In this document: positions 5,340-57,611 of the stretch, piece after piece
Layout of the letters: the number at the start of each line of letters is the position of its first letter
How positions within the stretch are numbered: the first letter of the stretch is position 1
Assembly (NCBI GenBank): GCA_028820935.1
Contig: JAPPHZ010000029.1
Location: 151,437-215,436 of the forward strand
From: a bacterium
Lineage (GTDB): Bacteria; Actinomycetota; Acidimicrobiia; Spongiisociales; Spongiisociaceae
Reading direction: 5' to 3'
DNA: 64,000 nucleotides
The notes under the pieces: model-generated
Database searches by the model: none
What the model saw: the letters and a program-made list of their open reading frames with translations, nothing else
What the model was told of the DNA's origin: nothing
Position numbers and translations under genes: made by a program

Positions 5340-6002
5340 TTAGACCGGCCAGCTCCGCATGTGATAGGCGTCGTCCCAGAACATCCACTCGTAGCGCATG
5401 CCGAGGCGCCACTTCTCGAGGAGCCCATCGAGGTCGTCCTGTTCGAGGCCGACGGTAAGCCGGTCGACGGCGGCGCGGAAGTCGTCCATCAGGTCGTGGT
5501 GGATCTTGCTGCCGTAGTACTCCATCCAGGACTCGCGGCGCTCTTCGCCGATGTTCCCCGATACCTGCTCGCCGATGAGGTCGTATGTCCAGGGGCAGGC
5601 TACGAAACTGGCCAGCCAGTCAATCGTGCGCCCGTCGAGCGCGTTGTACCACATGTGGTACGTGTACCCCCTGCAGGCCGGCGCCATGGGCGGCAGGTTG
5701 TCCGGGTCGCCTCCGAAGCTCTTCAGCAGGTCGCCCTGCCGTTCGTCGCTCGGCTCGAGGTTCCAGTCGCGGGTGAGCAGGTCGAAAGTCTCCTTGTCGG
5801 GCGCCTTTGCCGCTGCAACCAGCCGGCACCTGTAAACGGCGTCGACATACTGGAGGTTCTGTTCGAAGCAGAAGCGGAGCACCTCGTCCGGGAGAGTCCC
5901 CGCTTCGAGTTCAACGAGGAAGGGATGGCTCAAGATGGCGTCCCAAACGTCGCCGGTGTTATCCCAAAACCACTGTGCCCGGCTTGATGCCTGATCACCC
6001 AT
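5340..6002 (-). CDS. tenA: TenA/THI-4/PqqC-family protein (thiaminase II-like aminopyrimidine aminohydrolase).
   Basis: C-terminal 220 aa of the long ORF: MGDQASSRAQWFWD...HPFLVELEAGTLPDEVLRFCFEQNLQYV. The N-terminal 247 aa of the ORF is antisense of the SDR gene and was trimmed to the ATG at 6002. Confidence 0.75.
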   Translation of the reverse strand: MGDQASSRAQWFWDNTGDVWDAILSHPFLVELEAGTLPDEVLRFCFEQNLQYVDAVYRCRLVAAAKAPDKETFDLLTRDWNLEPSDERQGDLLKSFGGDPDNLPPMAPACRGYTYHMWYNALDGRTIDWLASFVACPWTYDLIGEQVSGNIGEERRESWMEYYGSKIHHDLMDDFRAAVDRLTVGLEQDDLDGLLEKWRLGMRYEWMFWDDAYHMRSWPV

Positions 6003-6080: not shown

Positions 6081-6842
6081 ATGTCCGTGCTTCCGGGAAG
6101 GAGGGCGGTGGTCACCGGAGCCGCGTCGGGCATCGGTGCGGCGACAAGCCGACGGTTCGCCCGCGAGGGAGCCTCCGTTGCTCTGGTGGATCGCAATGTG
6201 GATGGCGTGGCTCGTGTAGCCGACGAGATTCGTTCGGCAGGGGCGACCGCTGTTCCCGTTCCAGCTGATCTGGCTGTGGACGCAGATGTGGACCGTGCGA
6301 TTGAGGAGTCGGTGCGCGGCCTCGGCGGGATCGACATCCTGGTGAACTGTGCCGGGGTGGGTCAGCATCCCAAGCCCATCGAGGAGACAGATGATGCCGA
6401 ATTCGACCTCATCTTCTCCGTGAATGTTCGGAGCGTGTTCCTCATGATCCGGGCGGCGCTTCCCCATCTGGCGCAGGCGAGCGAGGCGGTCATCGTCAAC
6501 ATCGCGTCGAACATCTCGATCCGGCCCCGTCCCGGATACGCGGCCTACACGGCGAGCAAGGGAGCGGTGGCGTCGCTCACCCGGAGCCTGGCACTCGAGC
6601 TCGCCCCAAGGAACATCCGGGTCGTGGCGCTGTGCCCGGCGGCTTCGGATACCCCGATGCTGGTGGAGTTCATGGGCGGTCAGAACACCACCGAGAGCCG
6701 GGAGGCGATCGCCGAGGCGATCCCGATGGGGCGCCTGGTGCAACCGGACGAGGTGGCCGCCGTGGCCGCGTGGGCGGCGTCGGAGGATGCCCGGATGGTC
6801 ACCGGAGAGCTGATCTCCGTGGACGGCGGCCGGGGCCTCTGA
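6081..6842 (+). CDS. SDR-family oxidoreductase (FabG-like).
   Basis: Glycine-rich NAD(P) motif VVTGAASGIGAA. Classical SDR length of 253 aa. Confidence 0.85.
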   Translation: MSVLPGRRAVVTGAASGIGAATSRRFAREGASVALVDRNVDGVARVADEIRSAGATAVPVPADLAVDADVDRAIEESVRGLGGIDILVNCAGVGQHPKPIEETDDAEFDLIFSVNVRSVFLMIRAALPHLAQASEAVIVNIASNISIRPRPGYAAYTASKGAVASLTRSLALELAPRNIRVVALCPAASDTPMLVEFMGGQNTTESREAIAEAIPMGRLVQPDEVAAVAAWAASEDARMVTGELISVDGGRGL

Positions 6843-23519: not shown

Positions 23520-24379
23520 ACAACGGCCTCCTGGTTCGACTCGTCCTCGAGCCCCAGCACCTGTAGCGCCGGGCGCCGGATGATCCCTTCGATGACCTCC
23601 TGAGGGATCGGTGGCCAGCCTGTTCCCGCCGAATCGTTGACCGCACGCAACGCCTCGGCGGTGCCGGACGGCGTGGCGAAAGGGAAGTCGCTTCCGAATA
23701 GGAGCTTGCCGGTGACCCGGTACTCCATCGCGGACCGCAACGCCATATACAGTTGGAAGGGCCTGGTGTGCAGGGCGGAGATATCAGCGTACAGGTTGGG
23801 GTGCTTGCGGATCACCGCCATCGTCTCCTCGCACCACGGGTGGCCGAGATGGGCGATGAACAGCCGCAGATCCGGACAGGCGCGGGCAACATCGTCTATC
23901 AGGAAAGGTCTGGCCCAACGCAGCGGCGCATCCGAGACGAAGGTGGTGCCCTGGTGGCACAGCACCGGCAGTTCGAGCTTCTCGGCGTGACGGAACAGGG
24001 CTATGGCTTGGGGGGAGGTGGGATCGAAGTGCTGGTATATGGGTCCCACCTTGAGACCTCTGAGACCCAGTTCCGAGACCGCGAAGGTCAACCGGTCCAA
24101 GGCGTCGGGCCGGTTGGGATCGACGCTTGCGAACCCGATCAGCTTGCCCGGCTGGGACGCCACGTACTCGCTGACGTACCGATCGGGCACCACCATCCCC
24201 ACCGCCGGGGCATCCATCGCCACCACTATCGCCCGGTCGACGTGTTCCATGGCCACCCGGTGCGCATCCAGGTCGTCCTGCGGCCAATTCATCTCGCCCC
24301 AGGCCCGGACCATCTCAGCCACGAATCTGGGGCTGAAGTGATCGCGGGAACCGACGTGGGTATGGGCGTCGACGATCAT
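23516..24379 (-). CDS. Amidohydrolase-2 family metal-dependent hydrolase (PF04909-like; ACMSD/LigI-type).
   Basis: MIVDAHTHVG start motif and HLGHPW...LFGSDFP C-terminal motifs. Paralog of 29503, 45417, 46468 and 49765. Confidence 0.8.
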   Translation of the reverse strand: MIVDAHTHVGSRDHFSPRFVAEMVRAWGEMNWPQDDLDAHRVAMEHVDRAIVVAMDAPAVGMVVPDRYVSEYVASQPGKLIGFASVDPNRPDALDRLTFAVSELGLRGLKVGPIYQHFDPTSPQAIALFRHAEKLELPVLCHQGTTFVSDAPLRWARPFLIDDVARACPDLRLFIAHLGHPWCEETMAVIRKHPNLYADISALHTRPFQLYMALRSAMEYRVTGKLLFGSDFPFATPSGTAEALRAVNDSAGTGWPPIPQEVIEGIIRRPALQVLGLEDESNQEAVV

Positions 24380-29502: not shown

Positions 29503-30417
29503 TTGATCGCAAGAGGAGGTGATTCCGTGATAGTCGATGTCCACACCCACATAGGCTGGTACCCGGATCACTGGTCGGAGGAGGCGGCCCAGGAGGCCCT
29601 GGCATCCAAGCTGGTCAAGATGAAGCAGTCCGGGGGTGAGGTCCACAGCGCCCACCTCGACCTGCATTCCTACGATTCGCGGCCCGCGGACCATTGGGAG
29701 GCTGCGGGACCGGCCGACAAGGTAGTGGTGTTCGGGATACAGGCGGAGCCCACGGGGATCGTCGTCCCCAACCGGCTGATCGCCGAATACGTGGCGACCC
29801 ATCCGGACAAGTTGATCGGCTGGGCGTCCGTGAACCCGACCGCGCCGGACGCCATCGACCAGTTGACCCACTGCGTGGAGGACCTAGGTTTGGAAGGCCT
29901 GAAGCTCGGTCCCACCTACCAGCATTTCGATCCGACCGATCGCGCCTACTGGGACTTCTTCCGCAAGTGTGCGGGATACGGCATCCCGATCATATGGCAT
30001 CAGGGCACTACCTTTCCCAGCCGCGCCAGGCTCCGTTGGGCCTTGCCCCTTCAGCTGGAGGACGTGGCCATGGCGTTTCCCGAACTGAGGATGATCATCG
30101 CCCATCTCGGCCATCCTTGGGAGGAGGATGTCGTCGCCCTGATCCGCAAGTCGCCCAACATGTACGCGGACATCTCGGCTGTCCACTACCGGCCGTGGCG
30201 TTACTGGCAGGCGATGGTCACCGCCATGGAGTACGGAGTCGACCACAAGCTGCTACTTGCCTCCGATTACCCCTCCGGCACCATCAACAACGTGATCAAC
30301 GGCCTCAGACATATCAACGACATCGTCGAAGGCACCCGGCTCCCGACCATTCCCGAGGAGATCCAGGACGCGATCATCTACGAGAACTGGCGACGGCCCT
30401 TCCCGGACTGGGAGTGA
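29503..30417 (+). CDS. Amidohydrolase-2 family metal-dependent hydrolase.
   Basis: VIVDVHTHIG, IIAHLGHPWEED and LLASDYP motifs. Paralog of 23516..24379. Confidence 0.8.
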   Translation: MIARGGDSVIVDVHTHIGWYPDHWSEEAAQEALASKLVKMKQSGGEVHSAHLDLHSYDSRPADHWEAAGPADKVVVFGIQAEPTGIVVPNRLIAEYVATHPDKLIGWASVNPTAPDAIDQLTHCVEDLGLEGLKLGPTYQHFDPTDRAYWDFFRKCAGYGIPIIWHQGTTFPSRARLRWALPLQLEDVAMAFPELRMIIAHLGHPWEEDVVALIRKSPNMYADISAVHYRPWRYWQAMVTAMEYGVDHKLLLASDYPSGTINNVINGLRHINDIVEGTRLPTIPEEIQDAIIYENWRRPFPDWE

Positions 30418-42895: not shown

Positions 42896-43564
42896 TCAGA
42901 CCGGCCAGGCCCTCTCGTTGTAGGCCATGTCCCAGAACATCTGCTCCAGGCGGCTGCTGGTGCGGAAGATGTCCTCGATCCTTGCCAGGTCCGAACTGCT
43001 CATGCCCTCGCAGAGTCGTTCGAGCTTGTCCTTGACCTCTTCGAGCGTGTCCCAGTACTCCTGCCCTCCGAAGAACTCGATCCAGGTGCGGTAGACCTGG
43101 TGATCCGGAGCATCGGCCAGCCGTTCCCTGCCGATCTCCCCGTAGCTCCAGGCGCAGGGTGTCAGCGAGGCCATGATGTCGGCGGCTCGACCCTCGTAGG
43201 CCACGGTCAGCAGGTGGCGGGTGTAGGCCAACGTCCCGGGCTCCATCACCACCTCTTCGGTCGCCCCCGGAACCATCTGGCGGACCTCGTCGAGCAGCTG
43301 GCGGTTCTTGGGTAGCTCGAAGTCGACGATGTTGCTCACGATGGCGGCGAAGTCCCGCATGGTGTCCTCATCATCGGCCTTCGCCACACCGAGGGCCATC
43401 GCCCTCGCCAGCTCCCTGAGGAAGACGATGTTCTGGCCGATGTAGAAGGCGAACTTCCGCTCCGGAAGGGTGCCGGCGGTCAGTTCATCCACGAACGGAT
43501 GGCTGTGCAGCTCGTGCCAGATGTCCCTGCAGCTGTCTCGGAGCTTTTCGCAAACGCTGCTCAT
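42896..43564 (-). CDS. tenA: TenA/THI-4/PqqC-family protein (second paralog).
   Basis: MSSVCEKLRDSCRDIWHELHSHPFVDELTAGTLPERKFAFYIGQN. Start trimmed to 43564 (ATGA overlap with the upstream stop). Confidence 0.75.
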   Translation of the reverse strand: MSSVCEKLRDSCRDIWHELHSHPFVDELTAGTLPERKFAFYIGQNIVFLRELARAMALGVAKADDEDTMRDFAAIVSNIVDFELPKNRQLLDEVRQMVPGATEEVVMEPGTLAYTRHLLTVAYEGRAADIMASLTPCAWSYGEIGRERLADAPDHQVYRTWIEFFGGQEYWDTLEEVKDKLERLCEGMSSSDLARIEDIFRTSSRLEQMFWDMAYNERAWPV

Positions 43565-45159
43565 CGACCGGCACCTCCTCCGATGCGCCGGCCGCCGCCG
43601 AAGCCTGCCGGACCGGTCGTGGTGTTGTACTCGTATCCAAGGGCCATGGGCTCCTCCGCCCACGGGCGGTAGAAGTCGAACAGGTACGGCTCGACCTCGA
43701 ACGCCAACTCGGCCCACCGGGCCCATGGCTCCTCCAGATCGAACAGCCCCCTCGCTATCGCCTCGTTGTACTCGTCCCGGATCTGCTGCTCGTTGATCGT
43801 GGTAATCACGCCGTTGTCGAGGACCACCTTCCCGGCGACCAGCACCGTCTCGATGTCCGTGCCGTCGGCCCGGTCCAGGATCACGTCGAGCACCGGGCTC
43901 ACGTAGAACCGCGCCGGTCTCTCGAACACCCGCTTGCGGTCGAGGATGAGCAGGTCGGCGTCCTTACCCACCGCCAGGCTGCCGATGCGGTCCTCGGCGC
44001 GGGCGGCCCGCGCCCCGGACGTGGCCGCGGATCGCAGGAGCGCCTCGGAGTTGAGCCGGCCGTGCTCGGGTTCCGGCCCTCGGGGCAGCCGCTGGAGATA
44101 AGCGCCCAGGCGAACCTCCTGGAGCATGTCGTCCCGCTCGGAGAAGGAGATGGCATCGGTACCGAACGCCAGCCCTCCACCTGCGTCAAGGATGTCGCGG
44201 ACGCGGCACACCCCGGTGCTCAGCCGGAGGTTCGAGCCGGGGTTGCTCGCCGCCACGGCGCCGCTGTCGGCCAGGATCTCGATGTCACGGTCGGTGGCCC
44301 ACACGAAGTGTGATAGCGACACATCCGGCCCGAGGAGGCCGATGTCATCCAGCCGTTGCATGGCCGTGACGCCGAAGCGCCGGATGTTGTACTGCATCTC
44401 CGACCGGGTCTCCAGGCAATGGGTCATGATCCCCGTGTCGTAGTCGGTGGCGATGGCCCGGCAACGGCGGTAGAGGTCGTCGGACACCGCCGGGGTCCAG
44501 TCCGGCGCCAGCAGGACGCGAAGCCTGTCGTCCCGGCGGTCCCAGGTCGCGGCTGCATCCTCATAAGCGGCTATGACGTCGTCGCTCGGCAGGGCGTAAC
44601 CCATCGGTGAGTTACGCACCTCCTCGGCCAGCCCTTCGGGCAGTCGGGCCAGGAAGTCGTCGTTGGCCTCGTGGACGTAGAGGTTCTCATCGCGCAGGGT
44701 GATCCCGAGCCCGGTACGCATTCCCAGGTCCTCGTACGCCTGCAGGGCGTTGTCCATGCCGAAGTTCTTAGGACCGGGGCGGCCGTAGAAGGCATCGACC
44801 GTGGTCGTGATTCCTCCCCGGACCGCGGTCATGAGCGTGACAAGGATCGCCTTGTACATGATTTCCTCGTCCATCGGCTTGAAGACCGGATGGACGTAGA
44901 TGTTGGCCCGCTCGAAGAGCATCTCCCAGAGCCCGGGGCCCAGCGCCGACTCGGAGTGGTAGTGGGAGGCCACGAAGCCGGGCATCACGAAGTGGTCCTG
45001 CGAGCCGAGGATGCGGTCGAACGGCCCCTTGGTCTCGAGTTCGGCCCTCGGTCCGGACTCCACGATCTTCTTGCCCTCGACGATCAATGCGCCATCGGTG
45101 ATGAACGCTTCGTCGGCCAGCGTGACCACCGGGTTGCCCACGATGAGATATCGCGACAT
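43561..45159 (-). CDS. TRZ/ATZ-type amidohydrolase (amidohydrolase-1 superfamily; chlorohydrolase / aminohydrolase-like).
   Basis: PGFVASHYHSE metal-binding HxH region. 532 aa. Confidence 0.75.
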   Translation of the reverse strand: MSRYLIVGNPVVTLADEAFITDGALIVEGKKIVESGPRAELETKGPFDRILGSQDHFVMPGFVASHYHSESALGPGLWEMLFERANIYVHPVFKPMDEEIMYKAILVTLMTAVRGGITTTVDAFYGRPGPKNFGMDNALQAYEDLGMRTGLGITLRDENLYVHEANDDFLARLPEGLAEEVRNSPMGYALPSDDVIAAYEDAAATWDRRDDRLRVLLAPDWTPAVSDDLYRRCRAIATDYDTGIMTHCLETRSEMQYNIRRFGVTAMQRLDDIGLLGPDVSLSHFVWATDRDIEILADSGAVAASNPGSNLRLSTGVCRVRDILDAGGGLAFGTDAISFSERDDMLQEVRLGAYLQRLPRGPEPEHGRLNSEALLRSAATSGARAARAEDRIGSLAVGKDADLLILDRKRVFERPARFYVSPVLDVILDRADGTDIETVLVAGKVVLDNGVITTINEQQIRDEYNEAIARGLFDLEEPWARWAELAFEVEPYLFDFYRPWAEEPMALGYEYNTTTGPAGFGGGRRIGGGAGR

Positions 45160-45283
45160 ATGTCCCGTCCTTTCGGCTCGTGCCTCCCCGGGCCTGCACC
45201 GGTGAAGCGCTGACGTCTCTCCCGGACCTGCCGATATGGTCCGTCATGGCGAGCTTACTTCGGGCTTGGGAACGGCGTCTTGA

Positions 45284-45370
45284 GGAGGGTGCCGGAAAAG
45301 ACGAGCAGGGGTTGGCCCGCGATCCCGCGACCTGGGTTTCGTTGCCGGTGTCGGGCATGGCGGACGGTGC
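45284..45370. repeat. Diverged third copy (C3) of the intergenic element (GGAGGGTGCCGGAAAAGACGAGCAGGGGTTGGCCCGCGATCCCGCGACCTGGGT...).
   Basis: About 75% identity to the left arm plus spacer of C2. The right arm is not recognisable. Confidence 0.45.
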
Positions 45371-45416
45371 TCGGGTTAGGGTATCGACGTTGCCCGGAGT
45401 CCAGAGGAGGGCGCCA

Positions 45417-46418
45417 ATGCAGATCGATATGCACACCCATGTGCTCGCATTGGCGGCCGATCCCGAGTTCTCGGTGGAATACGGCCGGGAGGGTTCGCTC
45501 TGCATATACCGCAGTGCGGGGTCCGTGCCGGCGCATCGCATGCCCACGGAGGACGAGTGGGAGGAGAGTGGCTTCTCCCGAAAGGGTTGGCCGATCATCG
45601 GTGGCGCCGAATCCATGCGGGACCACCCCGGATTCGACAGGATCGTCCTGCTGTCCGTGTCGCCGCAGTGGCTCGACGGCCGTTTGATAGGAACGGTCGA
45701 CCCGACGGGCATCAGCGGCGTCGAGGGTCCGCCTCACCCCGAGAAGTGCAACGACTACATAGCCGGGCTCGTGCGGCAGGACCCGGAGACCCTGGTCGGC
45801 TTCGCTTCGGTGAACCCCGCCTACCAGGGACCGGAGGCGGCGGTGGAGGAACTCACGCGGGCGGTCCGCGAGCTGGGATTGTCCGGAGTGAAGCTCTACC
45901 CGATGTACCAGCACTGGTCGCCCGACGATCGCGAGCTGGCATTTCCCGTCTACCAGTGCGCTCTCGACCTGGGGATCCCGGTGATGTTCCACCAGGCCGG
46001 ATCAACGCGTATCGACGCCTCCCTCGGCCTGGGGCGGCCCGCGCTCCTCGACGATGTCGGCCGGGAGTTCCGCGACCTGGTGGTGATAATCGCCCACATG
46101 GGAATCCCGTGGCAGGACGAGGCGCTCTTCCTGCTCACCAAGCACCCCAACTTCTACGGCGAGCTCTCCTACCTGATCGCGGCCCTCAGCCCGAGGGAGC
46201 TGTTCACGTTCCTACACAAGGCAGAGCCCTTCTTCGTTCCCCTGGAGAAGCTGTTCTTCGGATCGGACTATCCCGGGTTCCTCTACGACCCGGTGGTACT
46301 GCGCGACAAGCTCCTCACCATCAACGACCATGCCGAACCGCTGGGACTCGATCCCATACCCCGGTACAAGCTCGAGGGCATCATGGGAGACCACGCGGCC
46401 GCAGTCCTCGGCTGGTGA
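45417..46418 (+). CDS. Amidohydrolase-2 family metal-dependent hydrolase.
   Basis: MQIDMHTHV start with a GAGGAGG RBS 7 nt upstream. IIAHMGIPWQDE and FFGSDYP motifs. 79 upstream codons were trimmed. Confidence 0.75.
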   Translation: MQIDMHTHVLALAADPEFSVEYGREGSLCIYRSAGSVPAHRMPTEDEWEESGFSRKGWPIIGGAESMRDHPGFDRIVLLSVSPQWLDGRLIGTVDPTGISGVEGPPHPEKCNDYIAGLVRQDPETLVGFASVNPAYQGPEAAVEELTRAVRELGLSGVKLYPMYQHWSPDDRELAFPVYQCALDLGIPVMFHQAGSTRIDASLGLGRPALLDDVGREFRDLVVIIAHMGIPWQDEALFLLTKHPNFYGELSYLIAALSPRELFTFLHKAEPFFVPLEKLFFGSDYPGFLYDPVVLRDKLLTINDHAEPLGLDPIPRYKLEGIMGDHAAAVLGW

Positions 46419-46467
46419 CGCAGCAGGTACAGCCGGTGGCTCCTCCTGGTTCCTGGCCGTCCGCCGG

Positions 46468-47442
46468 CTACTTGCTACTGGGTCGGTGGTGGTGTAGTCG
46501 GTAGACGCGGCGGGTGTTCTCTCCGAGTATTTGGTCGATTTCGTGTTGGGGGATGCGGTAGCCCAGTTGTTTGGCCCATTCGGGGAGCATGCGGAATTGG
46601 TCTACCCATTGTTTGAGGGTTAGGGAGACTTCTATGCCGGCCATGTCGGAGCCGAAGAGGATGCGGTCGGGTCCGATGCGGTCTCTCATCCATACGATTT
46701 TGCGGACTAGTTCGTCGGGGGAGATCCAGTGTTGCCATAGGCTCATGTCGAGGTGGACGTTGGTTTTGTAGATGGCGACGGAGATGGCTTCATGCGCCCA
46801 GGTTTCGTAGCGGGCGGAGTGGCCGAGGATGAAGCGTAGGTCGGGGAAGTCGGCGGCGGCTGAGTCGACGTAGATGGGGTGTCCGTATTTTGATTTGTGT
46901 CGTCCTGCGGAGTGTCCTTGGTGGAGGAGTACGGGTAGGTCTCTTTCGAGGAGGAACCGGTAGAGGGGGTAGACGACGTTTTCGTCGTCGGGGTAGAAGC
47001 CGTTGGTGGGATACAGTTTGAGGCCTATGGCGCCCCATTGGTCTACTGCGGTGGTGAGTATTTCGAGGGCGTCGGGGCGTCGGGGGTCTACTCCGCAGAA
47101 GGTGTAGAGGCGTCCGGGGTGTCTTTTGGTGGCTTCGGCGCAGAGCCGGTTCTTTTCTGCGATGGGGATGACGCCTTCTTCGCCCAGGCCGACACCGTGG
47201 TCCATGGGCATCATCACCGACGCGTCGACCCCGGCCTCGTCCATGCGAGCAACCGCCTTATCACCCGTGATGTCCGTAGCCTCCGCAACCCTCGCATGCA
47301 GGTAGGAGGGATCCGACTTGGGCGGGTCGTACCAGCGCACCTGCCTCGCCCATGAGGCATCCATGCCGGACCTCAGGTTGACAGGGTTCCAATCATCACC
47401 CCGGATGTGCATGTGGCAATCCACCACGAGAGCCCCGCTCAT
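46468..47442 (-). CDS. Amidohydrolase-2 family hydrolase (copy A). The C-terminal 260 aa are encoded by an identical 783-bp block shared with copy B.
   Basis: VVDCHMHI motif. ATGA overlap with the upstream SDR stop. Confidence 0.75.
   Translation of the reverse strand: MSGALVVDCHMHIRGDDWNPVNLRSGMDASWARQVRWYDPPKSDPSYLHARVAEATDITGDKAVARMDEAGVDASVMMPMDHGVGLGEEGVIPIAEKNRLCAEATKRHPGRLYTFCGVDPRRPDALEILTTAVDQWGAIGLKLYPTNGFYPDDENVVYPLYRFLLERDLPVLLHQGHSAGRHKSKYGHPIYVDSAAADFPDLRFILGHSARYETWAHEAISVAIYKTNVHLDMSLWQHWISPDELVRKIVWMRDRIGPDRILFGSDMAGIEVSLTLKQWVDQFRMLPEWAKQLGYRIPQHEIDQILGENTRRVYRLHHHRPSSK
46483..47265. repeat. 783-bp block that is 100% identical to 49780..50562 (direct repeat, offset 3297 bp).
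   Basis: Line-by-line identity was checked at several points. The block has lower GC and A/T-ending codons. Confidence 0.85.
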
Positions 47443-48215
47443 GCTGTCCATCCACCGTCGACGAGGAGGTTCTGCCCGGTCAGGTAGGAACTCATACCCG
47501 ATACGAGGAACAGGGCCGCGCCGACCATCTCCTCCGGCCGGGCGATGCGTCCCATGGGCGTCCGCTGGAGGATGGCCGACACGTTGTCCTCGACGGCGAG
47601 ATAGTCACGGGTCATTTCGGTTCTCACCCAAGCAGGACTGATGCAGTTGAGCCGCACCTTGGGCGCCCAATGGTCGGCGAGCACGGCGCTCATGTGGATC
47701 ATGGCCGCCTTGCTCGCGCTGTAGGCGACCTGGGCGCCGTCGCTCACCACCCCTGACAGCGATGCAATGTTGACGATCGAGCCTCCATTCCCATCCAGCA
47801 TGCGGCGACCGACCTCCCTGGTCAGGAAGAAGGCGCCCCGGAGGTTCACGTCGAACAACGCATCCCATTCCGCCGGACTGATCTCCAGCGCGGAGGAGCG
47901 GTTCGTGGCCCCGGCGGAGTTGACCAGGCTGTCCAGCCCGCCCTTCCACCGCCACGCCGCCGCTACCGCCGCCGCCGTGGCCTCGAGATCGGCGATGTCC
48001 GCAACGAGCGGAAGAAACTCGCCCCCTCCGGCGCGTATCTCGTCCCCGAGATCGTCAAGGGCGTCGGCGGAGCGGGCCAGGCCCACCACAGAGGCGCCGG
48101 CCGCGGCCAGACCGATGGCTATGGATCGCCCGATTCCCCTGCTGGCGCCGGCCACCAGCGAGGTGGCCCCCGCTTGATCGGGCCGCAGGGTCTCGAATTG
48201 CCCCCAATCCGCCAC
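47439..48215 (-). CDS. SDR-family oxidoreductase.
   Basis: LVAGASRGIGRSIA glycine motif and a YxxxK region (YSASK). Confidence 0.85.
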   Translation of the reverse strand: MADWGQFETLRPDQAGATSLVAGASRGIGRSIAIGLAAAGASVVGLARSADALDDLGDEIRAGGGEFLPLVADIADLEATAAAVAAAWRWKGGLDSLVNSAGATNRSSALEISPAEWDALFDVNLRGAFFLTREVGRRMLDGNGGSIVNIASLSGVVSDGAQVAYSASKAAMIHMSAVLADHWAPKVRLNCISPAWVRTEMTRDYLAVEDNVSAILQRTPMGRIARPEEMVGAALFLVSGMSSYLTGQNLLVDGGWTA

Positions 48216-48276
48216 GAGCGCCCTCCCTGACCTCCGATAAGCTGGGATCGGATCTCAACCAGCGAGGAAAACCCTA

Positions 48277-49719
48277 ATGGCCTTGTTCGACGAGTATGAA
48301 GACTACGACGCGCTCGGCCTGGCCGCCCTCATCCGCGACCGCCGGACCACGCCCGGAGAGTTGCTCGACGTGGCGCTGGATCGGGTAGCGACCAGGAATC
48401 CCGGCGTCAACGCGGTCATACACCTCATGGAGGACGCGGCCAGGGAGACCATCTCCCGCGGACTTCCTCCCGGGCCGGTATCGGGGGTTCCCTTCATGCT
48501 CAAGGATCTTCACGCGCTCTGCGCCGGCGAACCCACTAGCAACGGATCCCGCCTCTACCAGGGGAACGTCGCGGACCATGACAGCACCATCATCGCCCGG
48601 TACCGAGAGGCCGGCCTACTCCTCTTCGCCAAGACCAACACGCCCGAGGTCGGGATCAGCGGCACCACCGAGCCGGTTCTGCACGGGCCGACGCTAAACC
48701 CATGGGACAGGTCCCGCAGCGCCGGAGGGTCGAGCGGCGGAGGCGCGGCGGCGGTGATCACCGGCATGGTGCCCGTCGCGCAGGCAACCGACGGGGGCGG
48801 CTCGATCCGCAGTCCGGCCGCCAACTGCGGGCTGTTCGGTCTGAAACCGACCAAAGCACGGACACCGGCCGGTCCCGACGCGGGGGAGGGATGGAGCGGC
48901 CTTGCCACGTACCATGTCGTCTCCCGCACGGTGCGGGACAGTGCCGCCTTCCTCGACGTGGCCCACGGACCGGAACCCGGCGACCCCTACACCGCGCCCG
49001 TACCCGATCGCGACTTCCTGGCCGAGGTCGGCAGGGACCCGGGCAGGCTCCGCATCGCTCTGTGGACCGAGGGCCTCTGCGGGGAACCCGTCGACCCGGA
49101 GTGCGTGCTGGCTACGGAACGGGTCGCCGGCCAGCTGGCGGAACTCGGTCACACGGTCACCCCCGCCGTGCCTCCGGTCTCGGGGGCCGAATCCCGCCGA
49201 GCGATAACCACGATCCTCGTGGGGCATACCGCCAACCACGTCACGCTACGGCTGAATGCGCTGGGCCGTGCCCTCCGGAGCGACGATCTGGAGAACATAA
49301 CCCGGCTGGCCGCCGAGGAGGGGAACCGTCTGTCGGCGCGTGACTACGCCAACGCCTTGGTGATGGCTCATCGCACCGGCCGTCAGATGGCCGGGTTCTT
49401 CGACGAGTACGACATCATCCTGAGCCCCACCCTCGCCGATCCCCCCCTCCCGCTCCGCGGCCTCGACATGATGGGGGACGATCTGGACGTCTACATGGAC
49501 AGGCTGTGGGGGCACATGGCCTTCACCCCGCTCTACAACCTGAGCGGTTGCCCCGCCGCGAGCCTTCCGATGCATATGACACCTGACGGTCTCCCCGTAG
49601 GCGTCCAGATCGGCGCCGCCTTCGGCAACGAGGCCCTACTGTTCCGCCTCGCCGCCCAACTCGAAGAGGCCGACCCGTGGTGGGATCGCCGGCCCCCACC
49701 GCTGAACACGGAAAACTGA
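48277..49719 (+). CDS. Amidase-signature-family amidase (GatA/AtzE/AtzF-like).
   Basis: The GGSSGG amidase-signature motif and the Ser-cisSer-Lys region are present. 480 aa. Confidence 0.85.
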   Translation: MALFDEYEDYDALGLAALIRDRRTTPGELLDVALDRVATRNPGVNAVIHLMEDAARETISRGLPPGPVSGVPFMLKDLHALCAGEPTSNGSRLYQGNVADHDSTIIARYREAGLLLFAKTNTPEVGISGTTEPVLHGPTLNPWDRSRSAGGSSGGGAAAVITGMVPVAQATDGGGSIRSPAANCGLFGLKPTKARTPAGPDAGEGWSGLATYHVVSRTVRDSAAFLDVAHGPEPGDPYTAPVPDRDFLAEVGRDPGRLRIALWTEGLCGEPVDPECVLATERVAGQLAELGHTVTPAVPPVSGAESRRAITTILVGHTANHVTLRLNALGRALRSDDLENITRLAAEEGNRLSARDYANALVMAHRTGRQMAGFFDEYDIILSPTLADPPLPLRGLDMMGDDLDVYMDRLWGHMAFTPLYNLSGCPAASLPMHMTPDGLPVGVQIGAAFGNEALLFRLAAQLEEADPWWDRRPPPLNTEN

Positions 49720-49764
49720 CTCTCCGATCACGGGTAGCCGGTTCTCACCGGCCACCGTTTCTGG

Positions 49765-50733
49765 TCACCGTCCGCTGTTTCGGTGGTGGTGTAGTCGGTA
49801 GACGCGGCGGGTGTTCTCTCCGAGTATTTGGTCGATTTCGTGTTGGGGGATGCGGTAGCCCAGTTGTTTGGCCCATTCGGGGAGCATGCGGAATTGGTCT
49901 ACCCATTGTTTGAGGGTTAGGGAGACTTCTATGCCGGCCATGTCGGAGCCGAAGAGGATGCGGTCGGGTCCGATGCGGTCTCTCATCCATACGATTTTGC
50001 GGACTAGTTCGTCGGGGGAGATCCAGTGTTGCCATAGGCTCATGTCGAGGTGGACGTTGGTTTTGTAGATGGCGACGGAGATGGCTTCATGCGCCCAGGT
50101 TTCGTAGCGGGCGGAGTGGCCGAGGATGAAGCGTAGGTCGGGGAAGTCGGCGGCGGCTGAGTCGACGTAGATGGGGTGTCCGTATTTTGATTTGTGTCGT
50201 CCTGCGGAGTGTCCTTGGTGGAGGAGTACGGGTAGGTCTCTTTCGAGGAGGAACCGGTAGAGGGGGTAGACGACGTTTTCGTCGTCGGGGTAGAAGCCGT
50301 TGGTGGGATACAGTTTGAGGCCTATGGCGCCCCATTGGTCTACTGCGGTGGTGAGTATTTCGAGGGCGTCGGGGCGTCGGGGGTCTACTCCGCAGAAGGT
50401 GTAGAGGCGTCCGGGGTGTCTTTTGGTGGCTTCGGCGCAGAGCCGGTTCTTTTCTGCGATGGGGATGACGCCTTCTTCGCCCAGGCCGACACCGTGGTCC
50501 ATGGGCATCATCACCGACGCGTCGACCCCGGCCTCGTCCATGCGAGCAACCGCCTTATCACCGTTACCGTCGGCGGCCACACTCCAAGCCTTCGCGAAGT
50601 ACTCGGGGTCGGACTTGGGAGGGTCGTACCAGCGCACCTGCCTAGCCCAGGATTCGGCCATACCCGAGGACACGTTCATCGGGTTCCAATCGGGTTCCAT
50701 GATGTGCATATGGCAGTCCACCACCAAGGGCAT
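49765..50733 (-). CDS. Amidohydrolase-2 family hydrolase (copy B).
   Basis: MPLVVDCHMHI start with an AGAGGAG RBS upstream. The C-terminal 260 aa are identical to copy A. Confidence 0.75.
   Translation of the reverse strand: MPLVVDCHMHIMEPDWNPMNVSSGMAESWARQVRWYDPPKSDPEYFAKAWSVAADGNGDKAVARMDEAGVDASVMMPMDHGVGLGEEGVIPIAEKNRLCAEATKRHPGRLYTFCGVDPRRPDALEILTTAVDQWGAIGLKLYPTNGFYPDDENVVYPLYRFLLERDLPVLLHQGHSAGRHKSKYGHPIYVDSAAADFPDLRFILGHSARYETWAHEAISVAIYKTNVHLDMSLWQHWISPDELVRKIVWMRDRIGPDRILFGSDMAGIEVSLTLKQWVDQFRMLPEWAKQLGYRIPQHEIDQILGENTRRVYRLHHHRNSGR
49780..50562. repeat. Second copy of the identical 783-bp block.
   Basis: See 46483..47265. Confidence 0.85.
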
Positions 50734-50735
50734 GG

Positions 50736-52292
50736 TCACTCCTCTCTTGAACCGCTCCCCGTCAGGGGCGGATGCTTGGCGTTGTATACGGCCGCCGGCT
50801 CCAACGGTGTCCGGGCCCACGGGCGGTAGAAGTCGAGGACGTAGGGGTCCACCTCCCATCCCAGGCGCACCGACTCCGGGTCTGGGTCGCCTCCCATGAT
50901 GCGCGCAGCCGCTTCGGTGACGTAGTCATGCACCCGGCTGTGCGGAATGCGGGTGAACTCGCCGTCGTCGAACACGATCTCTCCGGCGACCATGACCGAG
51001 GCCACGTCGGCGGAAGAGGCTCGGTCGAGGATCACGTCCAGGGGCGGGGTGGACGCGTAGCGTTCCTCCGGCCAGAACAAGCGGTCGCGGCTCAATACGA
51101 CCAGGTCGGCTTCCTTGCCGACGCCGAGCGAGCCGAGTTCGGACTCGAAGCGGATCGCCCGGGCGCCGTTCTCCGCCGCGGCTCGCAGGACGGCTTCCGA
51201 ATCGAGGCGCCCGACCTCGAGCAATCCCGGCGTTCTCTGCAGGTAGGCGGCGAGGCGGAGCTCCTGCAAGAAGTCGCCGGAGTCGGAGAAGGAGATGTTG
51301 TCGGTGCCGAAGCACACCCGCCCGCCGCGGTCCATGATGTCCCTCACCCGCGCTATCCCGGTGCTGAGCCGGAGGTTGGAGCCGGGATTGTTGACGGCCA
51401 CCGCTCCCGTATCGGCGAGTATCGAGATGTCCTCGTCGGTCGCCCAGACGAAATGGGAACACGACACGTCGGGCCCCAGCACCCCGAGATCCGCCAGGCG
51501 GCGCATGGCGGTCTTGCCGTCGCTCTCCAGCGCGTACATCATCTCGGAGCGGGTCTCGAGCACGTGCGTCATGATCCCCGTTCCGAACTCATCGGCGAGG
51601 CGGCGGTTCCGGACGTAGAGCTCGTCCGAGCACGCCGGCGTCCAGTCCGGGGCGAGCAGTATCCGGATGCGGCCGTCCCGGTGATCCCACCGCGAGACCA
51701 GGTCCCGGTAGGTGGCGAACACCTCTCCGGTCGGCCACGCATAACCCATCGCCGATGCGCGCACGCGGGCAGCCAGATCCTCCGGGAGCATGGCGAGGAA
51801 CGACTCGTCGTCGGCGTGGACCAGGGTGTTCCGGTCCCTCGTCACCACACCGAGGGCCACCCGAACTCCGAGGTCCCGGTAGGCGGCCAGTATGGCGTCG
51901 TACCCGAAGTTGGGCAGACCGGACCGGCCGTAGTTGAGGTCGACGAACCCGGTCTGGCCTCCCCGCACGTCGTTCATGACGTTGGCCAGCACCGCGTGGT
52001 AGAGGTCCTCCTCGGTGACAGGGGTCCACATGCCATGCAAGTGGACGTTGGCCCGCTCGAAGATGTACTGGGCCATGCCCCTGCTCAGGGCCGAGCCCGA
52101 GTGATAATGACCGTTGATGAAGCCCGGAAGGACGGCATGGCGGGGCGATCCGACCCGCCGGTCGAAGGGACCGAGGCCCTCCAGATCGCGCCTCTTCCCG
52201 ATCCCTACGACGGTCCGATCCTCGACGACGAGCGCGCCGTCCCGGACATAACCCGGGGAAGCATCACCGAGGACGACGAGGGGATCTCCCAT
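50736..52292 (-). CDS. TRZ/ATZ-type amidohydrolase (paralog of 43561..45159).
   Basis: LPGFINGHYHSGS. Start trimmed to MGDPLVVLG (52292) by alignment to the paralog N-terminus. Confidence 0.7.
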   Translation of the reverse strand: MGDPLVVLGDASPGYVRDGALVVEDRTVVGIGKRRDLEGLGPFDRRVGSPRHAVLPGFINGHYHSGSALSRGMAQYIFERANVHLHGMWTPVTEEDLYHAVLANVMNDVRGGQTGFVDLNYGRSGLPNFGYDAILAAYRDLGVRVALGVVTRDRNTLVHADDESFLAMLPEDLAARVRASAMGYAWPTGEVFATYRDLVSRWDHRDGRIRILLAPDWTPACSDELYVRNRRLADEFGTGIMTHVLETRSEMMYALESDGKTAMRRLADLGVLGPDVSCSHFVWATDEDISILADTGAVAVNNPGSNLRLSTGIARVRDIMDRGGRVCFGTDNISFSDSGDFLQELRLAAYLQRTPGLLEVGRLDSEAVLRAAAENGARAIRFESELGSLGVGKEADLVVLSRDRLFWPEERYASTPPLDVILDRASSADVASVMVAGEIVFDDGEFTRIPHSRVHDYVTEAAARIMGGDPDPESVRLGWEVDPYVLDFYRPWARTPLEPAAVYNAKHPPLTGSGSREE

Positions 52293-52364
52293 CACCAGCG
52301 TCCGGCTCACCGTGGTCCTCCCACCCTGGTCCTCCTTGGGTGACCTGACCATAATGCCACCAGA

Positions 52365-56261: not shown

Positions 56262-57611
56262 GTGTCTGATCGGATCATCATCGAGAACGCTGCCATCGTG
56301 ACGATGAACGAAGAGGACGATGTGATCTTCGACGGGTCGATGGTCATCGAGGGCAACCGGATCGTCGCCGTCGGGGGCTCGGAGGCGGTGTCCGGATACG
56401 ACCGCGCCGGTGCGAAGGTCATCGACGCCGGCGGGAAGGCGGCCCTACCGGGGTTCGTCGACCTCCACTACCACACCGCCATAGGTAAGGGATACTGCGA
56501 CCATCTGGATCTGTGGGAGATCCTGCAGGCGTTCTGGTATCCGATGATCCGGGCCCTCAATCCCGAAGAGGCCTACTGGGCGGCCATGGCCAGCTACAGC
56601 GAGTCGTTGAAGGCCGGCGTCACCACCGCCAACGACATGTTCCGCCAACTCCCGGCCCTGGCGCGGGCGGCGGTCGACAGCGGGATCCGGGTGGTTCTCT
56701 CCAACGACATAGCCGACCCGGAGCACGATCTCGACCTGATCGAGGACAACGAGTCGGCCTACCACGAGTGCCACGGGATGGGCGACGGGCGGGTGGAGGT
56801 CTACGTGGGTATCGAGTGGCTACCCCTCGCCTCCGAGCAACTGCTGGTGGACTGCCGGGCGCTGGCCGACCAGTTGGGGACCGGTATCCACATCCACCTG
56901 AACGAGTCCCTCGGCGAGGTCGAGATATCTAAGCAGGCCTTCGGCGGGCGTCGGCCCACCGAGGTGGCTTACGACACCGGGATCCTGGGACCTGATTGCG
57001 TGGCCGCCCACTGCGTGCATCTGTCGGACCGGGAGATCGGGCTCATGAGCGAGACAGGAACCCACATCTCCCACAATCCCACCTCCAACGCCAAGCTCGG
57101 CAACGGTATCGCCCGGCTGCCCGAGATTCTGGAGGCGGGGATCAATGTCGGTCTGGGCCATGACTCGGCGGAAGGAACCAACAGCTGCGACCTGTTCCAG
57201 GTGATGAAGTGGGCGTCGCTGGTGCATCGGGCCGAGCGCAAGGACGCCACGATCCTTCAGGCGCCAACCATCCTGCGAATGGCGACCAGGAACGGCGCGC
57301 GTGCCCTAGGCCACGAGACGGGCGAGTTGAGCGTCGGGAAGGTGGCGGACGTGATCCTGGTCAACCTCCAGAACCACCATTTCACTCCTTTCGTGCCGGG
57401 TAACAAGATCCATCTCATGTCACATCTGGTCTACAGCGCGGAGAGCGCCGCGGTCGACACCACCATCGTGGACGGCACGATCGTGATGGAAGGGCGCGAG
57501 TTCGTGGCCTTCGACGAGGAGGAAGTGCTGGCGAAGGCGACCGAGAGCTTCTTCACCTGCACCGACCGGATGGAGGTCCCCGAGGAATACGCCGGGCTTC
57601 TCGACCGCTAG
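56262..57611 (+). CDS. TRZ/ATZ-type amidohydrolase (third paralog).
   Basis: PGFVDLHYHTA HxH motif. GTG start with a GAGGAG RBS upstream. Confidence 0.75.
   Translation: MSDRIIIENAAIVTMNEEDDVIFDGSMVIEGNRIVAVGGSEAVSGYDRAGAKVIDAGGKAALPGFVDLHYHTAIGKGYCDHLDLWEILQAFWYPMIRALNPEEAYWAAMASYSESLKAGVTTANDMFRQLPALARAAVDSGIRVVLSNDIADPEHDLDLIEDNESAYHECHGMGDGRVEVYVGIEWLPLASEQLLVDCRALADQLGTGIHIHLNESLGEVEISKQAFGGRRPTEVAYDTGILGPDCVAAHCVHLSDREIGLMSETGTHISHNPTSNAKLGNGIARLPEILEAGINVGLGHDSAEGTNSCDLFQVMKWASLVHRAERKDATILQAPTILRMATRNGARALGHETGELSVGKVADVILVNLQNHHFTPFVPGNKIHLMSHLVYSAESAAVDTTIVDGTIVMEGREFVAFDEEEVLAKATESFFTCTDRMEVPEEYAGLLDR

Follow-up and report, generated by a model that had tools for sequence, protein, structure and literature searches.

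The 64,000-nucleotide (nt) stretch of DNA presented above, called the window from here on, contains two genes of the Amidohydro_2 family (PF04909), referred to as amh2 genes A and B. Both lie on the minus strand, gene orientations being given throughout relative to the forward (plus) strand of the window. The two genes share a perfectly identical block of 783 nt, placed at 46483-47265 in A and at 49780-50562 in B. The best explanation of the locus as a whole, to which we assign a probability of about 0.8, is that recurrent recombination homogenises the C-terminal 80% of two anciently duplicated Amidohydro_2 genes, with a strand-specific base bias superimposed on the homogenised part. In this model the direct repeats would recombine homologously again and again, through ectopic gene conversion, cycles of unequal crossing-over or both, and the block would stay identical within each genome. 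Conversion tracts would end where the homology between A and B runs out, and the same repeats would permit loss of the intervening unit, formed by a short-chain dehydrogenase (SDR) gene and an amidase gene. Homogenisation would presumably depend on RecA.

Comparison of the window with itself showed that the two copies are exact over 783 nt at an offset of 3297, which is by far the longest perfect run in register, the next one being of 23 nt. Each copy is placed inside an open reading frame (ORF) that matches the Amidohydro_2 profile along its whole length. The block begins in phase at codon 63 of gene A (it spans codons 63-323) and stops four codons short of the stop codon, and hence the two products are identical over 261 amino acids (aa) and then end in different tails, PSSK in A and NSGR in B. 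On the 5′ side, across the 186 nt that encode the N-terminus, A and B are 62-64% identical in an ungapped comparison and 78% identical in a 120-nt core, and the corresponding peptides show 68% identity over 53 aa. Past the 3′ end of the block the two sequences are no longer similar (25-40%). An earlier note on this DNA had described the perfect 783-bp direct repeat, a shared C-terminal part of about 260 aa preceded by a diverged N-terminal part of about 60 aa, and different upstream partners (SDR for one gene, a TRZ/ATZ-type amidohydrolase for the other) with SDR and amidase bracketed by the repeats. All of this was borne out, the partners by domain matches. The similarity of about 75% that the note had placed immediately outside the repeats is approached only in the core on the 5′ side and is absent on the 3′ side.

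Concerted evolution of the two genes

Relatives were collected by scanning one genome per species, which gave 25 loci, all from Acidimicrobiia or close relatives and several of them labelled Candidatus Spongiisociaceae. An A/B pair with a perfectly identical block is present in five genomes, the window included, and two of these are a finished chromosome or a chromosome-scale contig. The perfect block measures 783 nt in the window, 869 nt in the finished chromosome OZ253564.1 (L012), 802 nt in L006 (a 66-kb contig from another assembly), 698 nt in L009, and 485 nt in a single 4.39-Mb contig where the copies lie 12.5 kb apart (L010/L022); the other differences of this last pair fall in a few 10-column bins of the alignment, with at most two in each, from column ~190 onwards, 5′ of the perfect block. 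Between genomes the block diverges by up to 24%, and by 19-24% among the more distant ones (76-82% identity to L005, L006 and L007). The limits of the identical tracts vary: the 5′ ends are at alignment columns 99, 186, 186, 297 and 477, and the 3′ ends are located 15 nt before the stop codon, 1 nt after it or 20 nt after it.

Neighbour-joining trees separate the two parts of the genes. In the tree of the N-terminal 186 nt the A type and the B type each cluster across genomes, whereas the block clusters by genome in six genomes. These six include the pair L005/L033, whose copies are at present not homogenised, being 81% identical with no identical run above 41 nt. The duplication that gave rise to A and B is old, since the N-terminal types are orthologous across genomes and the products of the accompanying paralogues TRZ_A and TRZ_B are only 54% identical at the amino acid level. 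The gene order, read with amh2 on the plus strand, is conserved as TRZ_B, B, amidase (reverse), SDR, A, a third and distant Amidohydro_2 gene (reverse), TRZ_A and TenA. The absence of any difference in about 800 nt in each of five lineages implies that homogenisation is fast relative to mutation; at ordinary bacterial mutation rates, each generation would have to see at least about 1e-7 to 1e-6 conversion events.

The variants found among the relatives include the products that such repeats could generate. In L007, TRZ_B is followed by one gene only, composed of a B-type N-terminus and the block, and then by the gene that normally comes after A, an arrangement that would be expected from recombination between the two blocks. 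L021 lacks the SDR and A; in L020 all that is left of A is a pseudogene, internally deleted and 88% identical to B; and L006 lacks the amidase. The protein P0001 was considered as a further deletion hybrid and rejected, its contig (L054) having the ordinary order TRZ_B, B, amidase. The single B-type gene of L007 matches the suggestion of the earlier note that the repeats are substrates for deletion of the intervening unit. The note had also proposed that related strains be compared for conversion tracts and for presence or absence of that unit; in this comparison tract ends vary, and relatives without the unit or without copy A exist.

The comparison of these loci thus shows concerted evolution with variable tract ends, together with single-copy and deletion architectures, and homogenisation is ancient and recurrent rather than the outcome of one recent event. 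A single recent event, either a tandem duplication followed by replacement of the N-terminus or the exchange of a ready-made cassette, would account for the perfect identity and for the sharp, in-phase boundary, but it is very improbable, since the N-terminal types A and B each remain orthologous between genomes that differ by about 55-64% at flanking four-fold degenerate sites, the five genomes have each their own identical block with differing tract ends, the blocks cluster by genome, and no integrase or att-like feature was seen at the locus. A mobile origin was searched for among 72,556 plasmids and 50,697 phages without any blastn match, and there is no recombinase among the genes of the locus. 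Of the proposal of recent gene conversion or cassette exchange made in the earlier note, conversion is retained, "recent" gives way to recurrent and ancient, and the cassette finds no recombinase, site, plasmid or phage to support it.

It is equally improbable that the repeat is an artefact in which a single copy, or two slightly different copies, were duplicated or collapsed by the assembler. The junctions are found again, at 100% identity, in independent short-read assemblies of this population, which break either 55 nt into the repeat or at its end. Among them the amidase protein is found on four short contigs (NCBI GCA_028819445.1, two assemblies of the European Nucleotide Archive and one Logan assembly), all 100% identical to the window, and one contig, L002, consists of the unique 2.5-kb segment between the repeats plus 55 nt of repeat at each end, giving a loop-shaped graph. 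No match on record was found for the exact A and B proteins, and the flanking proteins were matched only on contigs of 2-6 kb. At least two copies of the repeat are needed on a linear chromosome, because the intervening unit is joined only to repeat at both ends. Moreover, the two-copy architecture with identical blocks is also present in the finished chromosome OZ253564.1, in the 4.39-Mb contig and in L006, and the nearest relative, L009, has the same gene order. Contigs of further short-read metagenome-assembled genomes (MAGs) from sponges stop 55 nt or about 141 nt after residue 62 (L024-L031: APA_bin_98, RHO1_bin_3, RHO1_bin_64, Arabian9_MAG_13 and CO36404bin_8), which indicates that the same repeat is probably present in them. 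The warning of the earlier note about assembly was therefore justified in so far as short-read MAG contigs stop inside the block, whereas a duplication artefact is contradicted by finished chromosomes carrying the same pair. One reservation concerns the degree of identity: breaks at the repeat are the output expected from a de Bruijn assembler for a true repeat, and popping of bubbles in the graph could mask a few real differences between A and B behind the 100% of the window.

A strand-specific base bias within the block

The homogenised block carries an extreme base bias, which the earlier note had not mentioned. In the skewed part, about 700 nt long (codons 90-323), the third codon positions are C.64-.65, A.26-.27, G.08 and T.01, the residual G being largely that of the obligatory ATG and TGG codons, while in neighbouring genes they are roughly C.44-.52, G.32-.42, A.05-.08 and T.06-.10. 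At four-fold sites the block has C.72, A.24, G.04 and T 0 (n=114) against C.46, G.40, A.08 and T.06 (n=1841) in eight flanking genes (chi-square 89, p = 4e-19). Lys, Glu and Gln codons end in A in 27 of 29 cases in the block and in 45 of 284 in the flanking genes (p = 2e-17), and codons that are normally the rarest (ATA, AGA, CTA, CGA, GGA) are used freely. The GC skew of the plus strand reaches +0.46 in 200-nt windows at the block, the strongest excursion in the 64 kb, and +0.40 in 300-nt windows, for which the mean over the whole stretch is 0.015 with a standard deviation (sd) of 0.086. The limit of the bias is sharp and is situated inside the ORF, as the first 90 codons are ordinary, including the first ~83 nt of the identical block. 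The A/C-rich mRNA of the block is predicted to fold much more weakly (-24 vs -43 kcal/mol per 100 nt). Within the clade of the window the commonest silent difference is A vs C. Amino acid replacements shift in the direction of the bias as well: L014 and the window encode different amino acids at 42 codons, and at the first two positions of these codons the window has 26 keto bases where L014 has 58. A side effect of the near absence of T at third positions is that the +2 frame of the minus strand is left almost free of stop codons at 46483-47182. The database "protein" P0017 (379 aa) is a frameshifted gene call reading this Arg/Pro-rich +2 frame, and gene callers can be misled here.

The A/C bias extends across the clade of the window (L008, L009, L012, L010, L022, L034, L043 and L054) and is weaker in L020, L021, L011, L035 and L007. 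Its mirror image, a G/T bias, is found in L014, L037, L013 and L036. In L014 the four-fold sites are G.81, C.10, T.08 and A.01, none of the 31 Lys, Glu and Gln codons ends in A, and among the 52 two-fold pyrimidine codons only 28 have C at the third position. No bias is seen in the unhomogenised pair L005/L033 or in homologues further removed (60-66% aa identity). To the clade of the window belongs also L054 (TARA_SAMEA6028956 scaffold_531021), 96% identical over TRZ_B, B and amidase and with the same skew; it comes from a Tara metagenome, so the lineage is not confined to sponge samples.

The singularity of the amh2 genes was evident in a scan for keto-rich or amino-rich segments (G+T vs A+C) over 296 ORFs from all examined loci, which, both signs being scored, gave 592 scores. 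The top 15 of these (24-113) all came from the amh2 family; the 95th percentile was 10.5, and outside the family a noticeable segment occurred in one gene only, which had the best score of the other genes, 15.2 (L014 10842-11915, minus strand, 170 codons, mean -0.53). In the strongly skewed loci, which include L009, L012, L013, L014 and L022, the amh2 gene supplies most or all of the largest GC-skew windows.

Maximal-segment analysis of the third-position state, expressed in codon numbers of gene A of the window, located the segments at the ends of the block. The amino-rich (A+C) segments are anchored at its 3′ limit and reach to a variable extent in the 5′ direction: they cover codons 90-324 in the window, start at codon 82 in L008, L009, L012, L022 and L034 and at codon 103 in L020 and L021, and cover 266-320 in L007. 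The keto-rich (G+T) segments are anchored at the 5′ limit, codon 60-64, where the homology between A and B has its boundary, and reach variably in the 3′ direction: 60-291 in L014, 63-240 in L037, 52-258 in L013, 64-233 in L036, 61-226 in L006 and 65-94 in L007. L007 carries segments of both types, and across the loci the left part of the block tends to be keto-rich and the right part amino-rich on the coding strand. The anchoring at the block ends implies that the limits of the bias are those of the recombining block and not those of the ORF or the operon.

The bias has persisted. It is kept across the clade while flanking four-fold sites differ by 38-52% between the window and L012 and by 45-54% between the window and L021, and for this reason a decaying historical accident was rejected. 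Hypermutation was rejected because the four-fold divergence of the block is lower than that of the flanking genes,.26 against.38-.52 for the window and L012 and.13 against.15-.30 for the window and L008, which is about what the reduced alphabet predicts. Replication-associated skew resembles the bias in that G+T accumulates on one strand and A+C on the opposite one, and the sign of the block skew agrees with that of the very weak flank skew in 11 of 15 rows by GC skew and in 13 of 15 by a combined keto-amino index, rows that are not independent. However, replication was rejected as the driving force: the bias is limited to about 700 bp in one ORF (46483-47182 and 49780-50479 in the window, where the flank skew is about 0.01), neighbours 50 nt away are unaffected, and in the strongly skewed loci the block exceeds most flanks by about 10-100x (about 0.2-0.32 vs 0.003-0.04). 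A bias that is specific to a gene, limited to a block and mirrored between orthologues makes the locus more interesting than the earlier note had presented it.

Origin of the bias

We regard the bias of the block as the expression of a real, maintained directional force. The origin that we favour, tentatively and with well under even confidence, is a strand-asymmetric mutational footprint of recurrent recombination, in which one of the strands is repeatedly single-stranded or resynthesised. More doubtful is the proposal that the bias is the long-term footprint of one-directional DNA synthesis, or of single-strand exposure, during recombination between A and B. In the mechanism envisaged, a break or gap inside the block would be resected outward and then refilled; the strand of the 3′ overhang would be exposed to deamination, and the resected strand would be resynthesised. 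The location of keto-rich segments at the 5′ end of the block and amino-rich segments at its 3′ end is the polarity expected from outward resection and refilling. Mismatch repair could contribute to the direction of the change. In actinobacteria EndoMS/NucS replaces MutS/MutL and cleaves G/T, G/G and T/T mismatches, but not C/A (Takemoto et al. 2018, PMC6159521). The A/C direction of the coding strand of the block is that which would be expected from errors missed by NucS, which, unlike the block bias, is a genome-wide system with no local effect described. NucS is not known to act on C/C or A/A mismatches either, and if these were missed too, uncorrected errors would push the resynthesised strand to A + C, which would cover the net change of G to C. 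A pure deamination (transition) signature was rejected: of the four-fold sites at which the outgroups have G, 29 are C and 10 are A in the window, although saturation permits multi-step paths. The pseudogene of copy A in L020 was considered as a probe of the mutation spectrum free of selection and discarded, as it has too few informative changes and an internal deletion.

Several observations weigh against a footprint of recombination between the copies. L013 is on a short-read contig that runs straight through the gene and is probably single-copy, yet it is strongly skewed, as is L014, which has no second copy within 7 kb. Conversely, L006 has two identical copies but only a mild skew, and L020 and L021 have lost conversion (A vs B 88%) and are still skewed. 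The four-fold divergence of the block is not elevated, from which it follows that the force would have to act as a bias and not as hypermutation. The clades supply only 2-3 independent observations. Finally, resection combined with NucS needs a large effect size, and it is doubtful that it would suffice.

An unlikely alternative is that transcription sets the bias, with antisense read-through from the convergent gene, possibly with R-loops, exposing the plus strand in the clade of the window and strong sense transcription doing the reverse in loci of the L014 type. Both copies in the window have a convergent gene that ends about 50 nt from their stop codon with no terminator-like site in between, and the orientation of the downstream gene fits the sign of the skew in most loci. 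The skew is, however, positive in L036 in spite of its convergent amidase and absent from L005 in spite of a convergent gene, and on these grounds the convergent downstream gene was rejected as the setter of the sign. Moreover, the convergent genes are themselves unskewed, and the keto-rich segments begin at codon ~60-64 and not at the start of transcription. A terminator-like antisense hairpin followed by a T-tract is present on the plus strand at 47130-47159 and 50427-50456, some 20 nt from the 5′ edge of the skewed zone; since it has only 5 bp and lies within coding sequence (EKNRLCAE) conserved in all lineages, it was given little weight as a cause.

Selection, in the form of codon optimisation or of an unstructured mRNA for a highly expressed enzyme, is improbable. 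It would agree with the dominance of C-ending codons, with the weak predicted folding of the A/C-rich mRNA and with a four-fold divergence of the block below that of the flanking genes. Nevertheless, the bias is missing from the initial 90 codons of the ORF, codons that are ordinarily the rarest occur freely, the mirror-image orthologues have sense mRNAs that fold normally, and the amino acid replacements follow the same base bias. Still less probable is a foreign segment, obtained from a compositionally unusual donor and then carried into both copies by conversion, which would explain the abrupt change of composition inside the block and the mosaic appearance of L007. No donor-like sequence was found, all close relatives belonging to the same syntenic family, and neither plasmids nor phages gave a match; the relatives rank in the same order of similarity for the block as for the flanking genes, and the bias has not decayed though flanking four-fold sites differ by 38-54% across the clade. 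An overlapping or antisense ORF was also rejected, the alternative frames being Arg/Pro-rich or interrupted by stops, with no conserved second ORF seen. Searches for G-quadruplex (G4) motifs with loops of up to 12 nt found none in 46400-47500 or 49700-50800 on either strand, where the density of G-runs is about 1 sd above the window mean, and no Rfam match with E up to 1 was obtained in 45000-51500.

If the cause is mutational, the history of strand-specific repair or recombination would be readable from sequence alone, and if it is selection, there would be an unusual constraint on silent sites that ends sharply inside an ORF. Should the bias indeed reflect resection and refilling, one gene of an uncultured bacterium would keep a record of where and in which direction recombination is initiated, and local skew could be used as a signature of repair synthesis.

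Locus organisation, enzyme family and known systems

Recurrent concerted evolution of prokaryotic paralogues lasting over long times is documented (Wang & Chen 2018, PMC6053082), and the A/B pair is a further case of it, with partial-gene homogenisation and strand bias as variations. As in the documented cases, paralogues within a genome are closer than orthologues between genomes, in many lineages and over long times, and recombination between dispersed or neighbouring copies is inferred. The pair differs from them in that it is homogenised only in part, the N-terminal ~60 codons staying as two orthologous types, in that the gene encodes an uncharacterised catabolic hydrolase and is not a core gene, and in that the homogenised part carries an extreme strand-specific base bias. 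The classic case of gene conversion is that of tufA and tufB in enterobacteria. In the open-access literature we found no report of a bias this large, limited to part of one bacterial ORF and mirrored between orthologues.

Two other systems share some features with the locus. Antigenic variation of the Neisseria pilin proceeds through gene conversion initiated at a G4, and, as at the present locus, part of a gene is recurrently converted from a nearby homologous copy. In contrast, A and B are two intact genes that are homogenised and not diversified from silent cassettes, and no G4 is present in or next to the blocks. Diversity-generating retroelements, with their template and variable repeats, likewise contain a duplicated gene segment whose copies are separated by a few kb, one copy forming the 3′ end of an ORF. 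However, the A/B copies are identical, without adenine differences, and measure 783 nt and not ~100-150 nt. No reverse transcriptase was found among the ten neighbouring ORFs tested, which have only hydrolase, SDR, amidase, TenA, ATP-grasp and CoA-ligase domains.

A and B encode an uncharacterised enzyme of the metal-dependent hydrolase/decarboxylase superfamily and are located in a catabolic gene cluster that is conserved in Acidimicrobiia (order Candidatus Spongiisociales and relatives). On the Amidohydro_2 profile, for which the curated cut-off is 26.4, A scores 113.5 bits and B scores 120 bits, with profile positions 1-289 covered. The closest solved relative is the uncharacterised protein BB4693 (3IRS, E = 2e-11), and the match to LigW is weak. 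The N-terminal module of both proteins includes the motif VVDCHMHI, invariant in 14 homologues, whose HxH we take to be metal-binding, as in this superfamily generally. The loop that follows HxH may set substrate specificity, in which case selection would keep the N-terminal modules distinct. This boundary is not strictly protected, because in copy A of the finished chromosome L012 (7001-7978) the identical tract extends to codon 33, resulting in a hybrid N-terminus that is of A type to residue ~32 and of B type thereafter. A structure model intended to place the N-terminal module at the active site was not used, as the AlphaFold2 (AF2) prediction had a pLDDT (predicted local distance difference test) of 58, with residues 1-95 below 50.

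The bacterium of the window is probably a sponge-associated actinobacterium. The perfect 0.8-kb repeat fragments short-read assemblies of sponge-symbiont genomes at this catabolic locus, and as contigs end in the block, the gene inventories of MAGs of these bacteria will miss or miscount amh2 genes. At the same time the locus offers a clean bacterial case in which a shared catalytic barrel has undergone homogenisation over very long periods and a short N-terminal module persists as two orthologous types, with natural deletion and pseudogene variants. The features of the locus are collected in Table 1.

Table 1. Features at and around amh2 genes A and B (positions in the window; strand relative to its forward strand)
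Feature	Position	Strand	Evidence or remark
Repeat copy A, homogenised block, codons 63-323 of gene A	46483-47265	-	100% identical to 49780-50562
Repeat copy B, homogenised block of gene B	49780-50562	-	100% identical to copy A; contig L001 of an independent assembly ends exactly at 50562
Amidohydro_2 gene A, 327 aa, A-type N-terminus	46468-47451	-	PF04909, E = 2e-32
Amidohydro_2 gene B, 323 aa from MPLVVDC, B-type N-terminus	49765-50736	-	PF04909, E = 2e-34; homologue alignment
A-type N-terminal module, 62 codons, with HxH motif CHMHI, not homogenised	47266-47451	-	groups with A types of other genomes, not with own B; 68% aa identity to B module
B-type N-terminal module, 58 codons, not homogenised	50563-50736	-	homologue alignment, N-terminal tree
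Strand-skewed part of block A, codons 90-323; coding strand A/C-rich, plus strand G/T-rich	46483-47182	-	third positions, GC skew, segment analysis
Strand-skewed part of block B, identical in sequence to that of block A	49780-50479	-	same measures
First ~83 nt of block A, ordinary composition; twin in B at 50480-50562	47183-47265	-	third positions C.44, G.35, T.15 (alignment columns 186-290, ~100 nt, a slightly wider stretch)
SDR, between the repeats, upstream partner of A	47439-48215	-	PF13561, PF00106
Amidase, between the repeats, convergent with B, stops 46 nt apart	48277-49719	+	PF01425, E = 1e-91; exact protein on contigs L001-L004
Third, distant Amidohydro_2 paralogue, convergent with A, stops 50 nt apart, normal composition	45420-46418	+	PF04909
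TRZ_B, TRZ/ATZ-type Amidohydro_1, upstream partner of B	50736-52343	-	PF01979; 54% aa identity to TRZ_A
TRZ_A, TRZ/ATZ-type Amidohydro_1, old paralogue of TRZ_B	43561-45159	-	PF01979; conserved synteny
TenA/PqqC-family gene, after TRZ_A	42896-43573		PF03070

The start and stop of adjacent genes overlap by 13 nt between SDR and A (47439-47451) and by 1 nt between TRZ_B and B (50736), which suggests a possible coupling of translation between each amh2 gene and the partner that precedes it. The regions 3′ of the amh2 genes look like a hot spot for insertion, to judge from the sequences that occupy them in some relatives. In L020 (8598-11102) and L021 (7973-10478) a pair of ORFs resembling a restriction-modification system, judged from the sequences with no family search run, follows right after the stop codon of gene B. 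The pair is composed of a methylase-like ORF of 518 aa and an endonuclease-like ORF of ~314 aa, the latter being broken in L021, and in L010 and L012 other inserted DNA follows the stop codon of A. Elsewhere in the window there are distant members of the same families, one TenA-like, one SDR-like, two Amidohydro_2-like and one Amidohydro_1-like (coordinates 5343-5987, 6096-6830, 23552-24184, 29707-30378 and 56262-57548), which are 28-40% identical to the proteins of the cluster and suggest that the window may hold several related catabolic modules.

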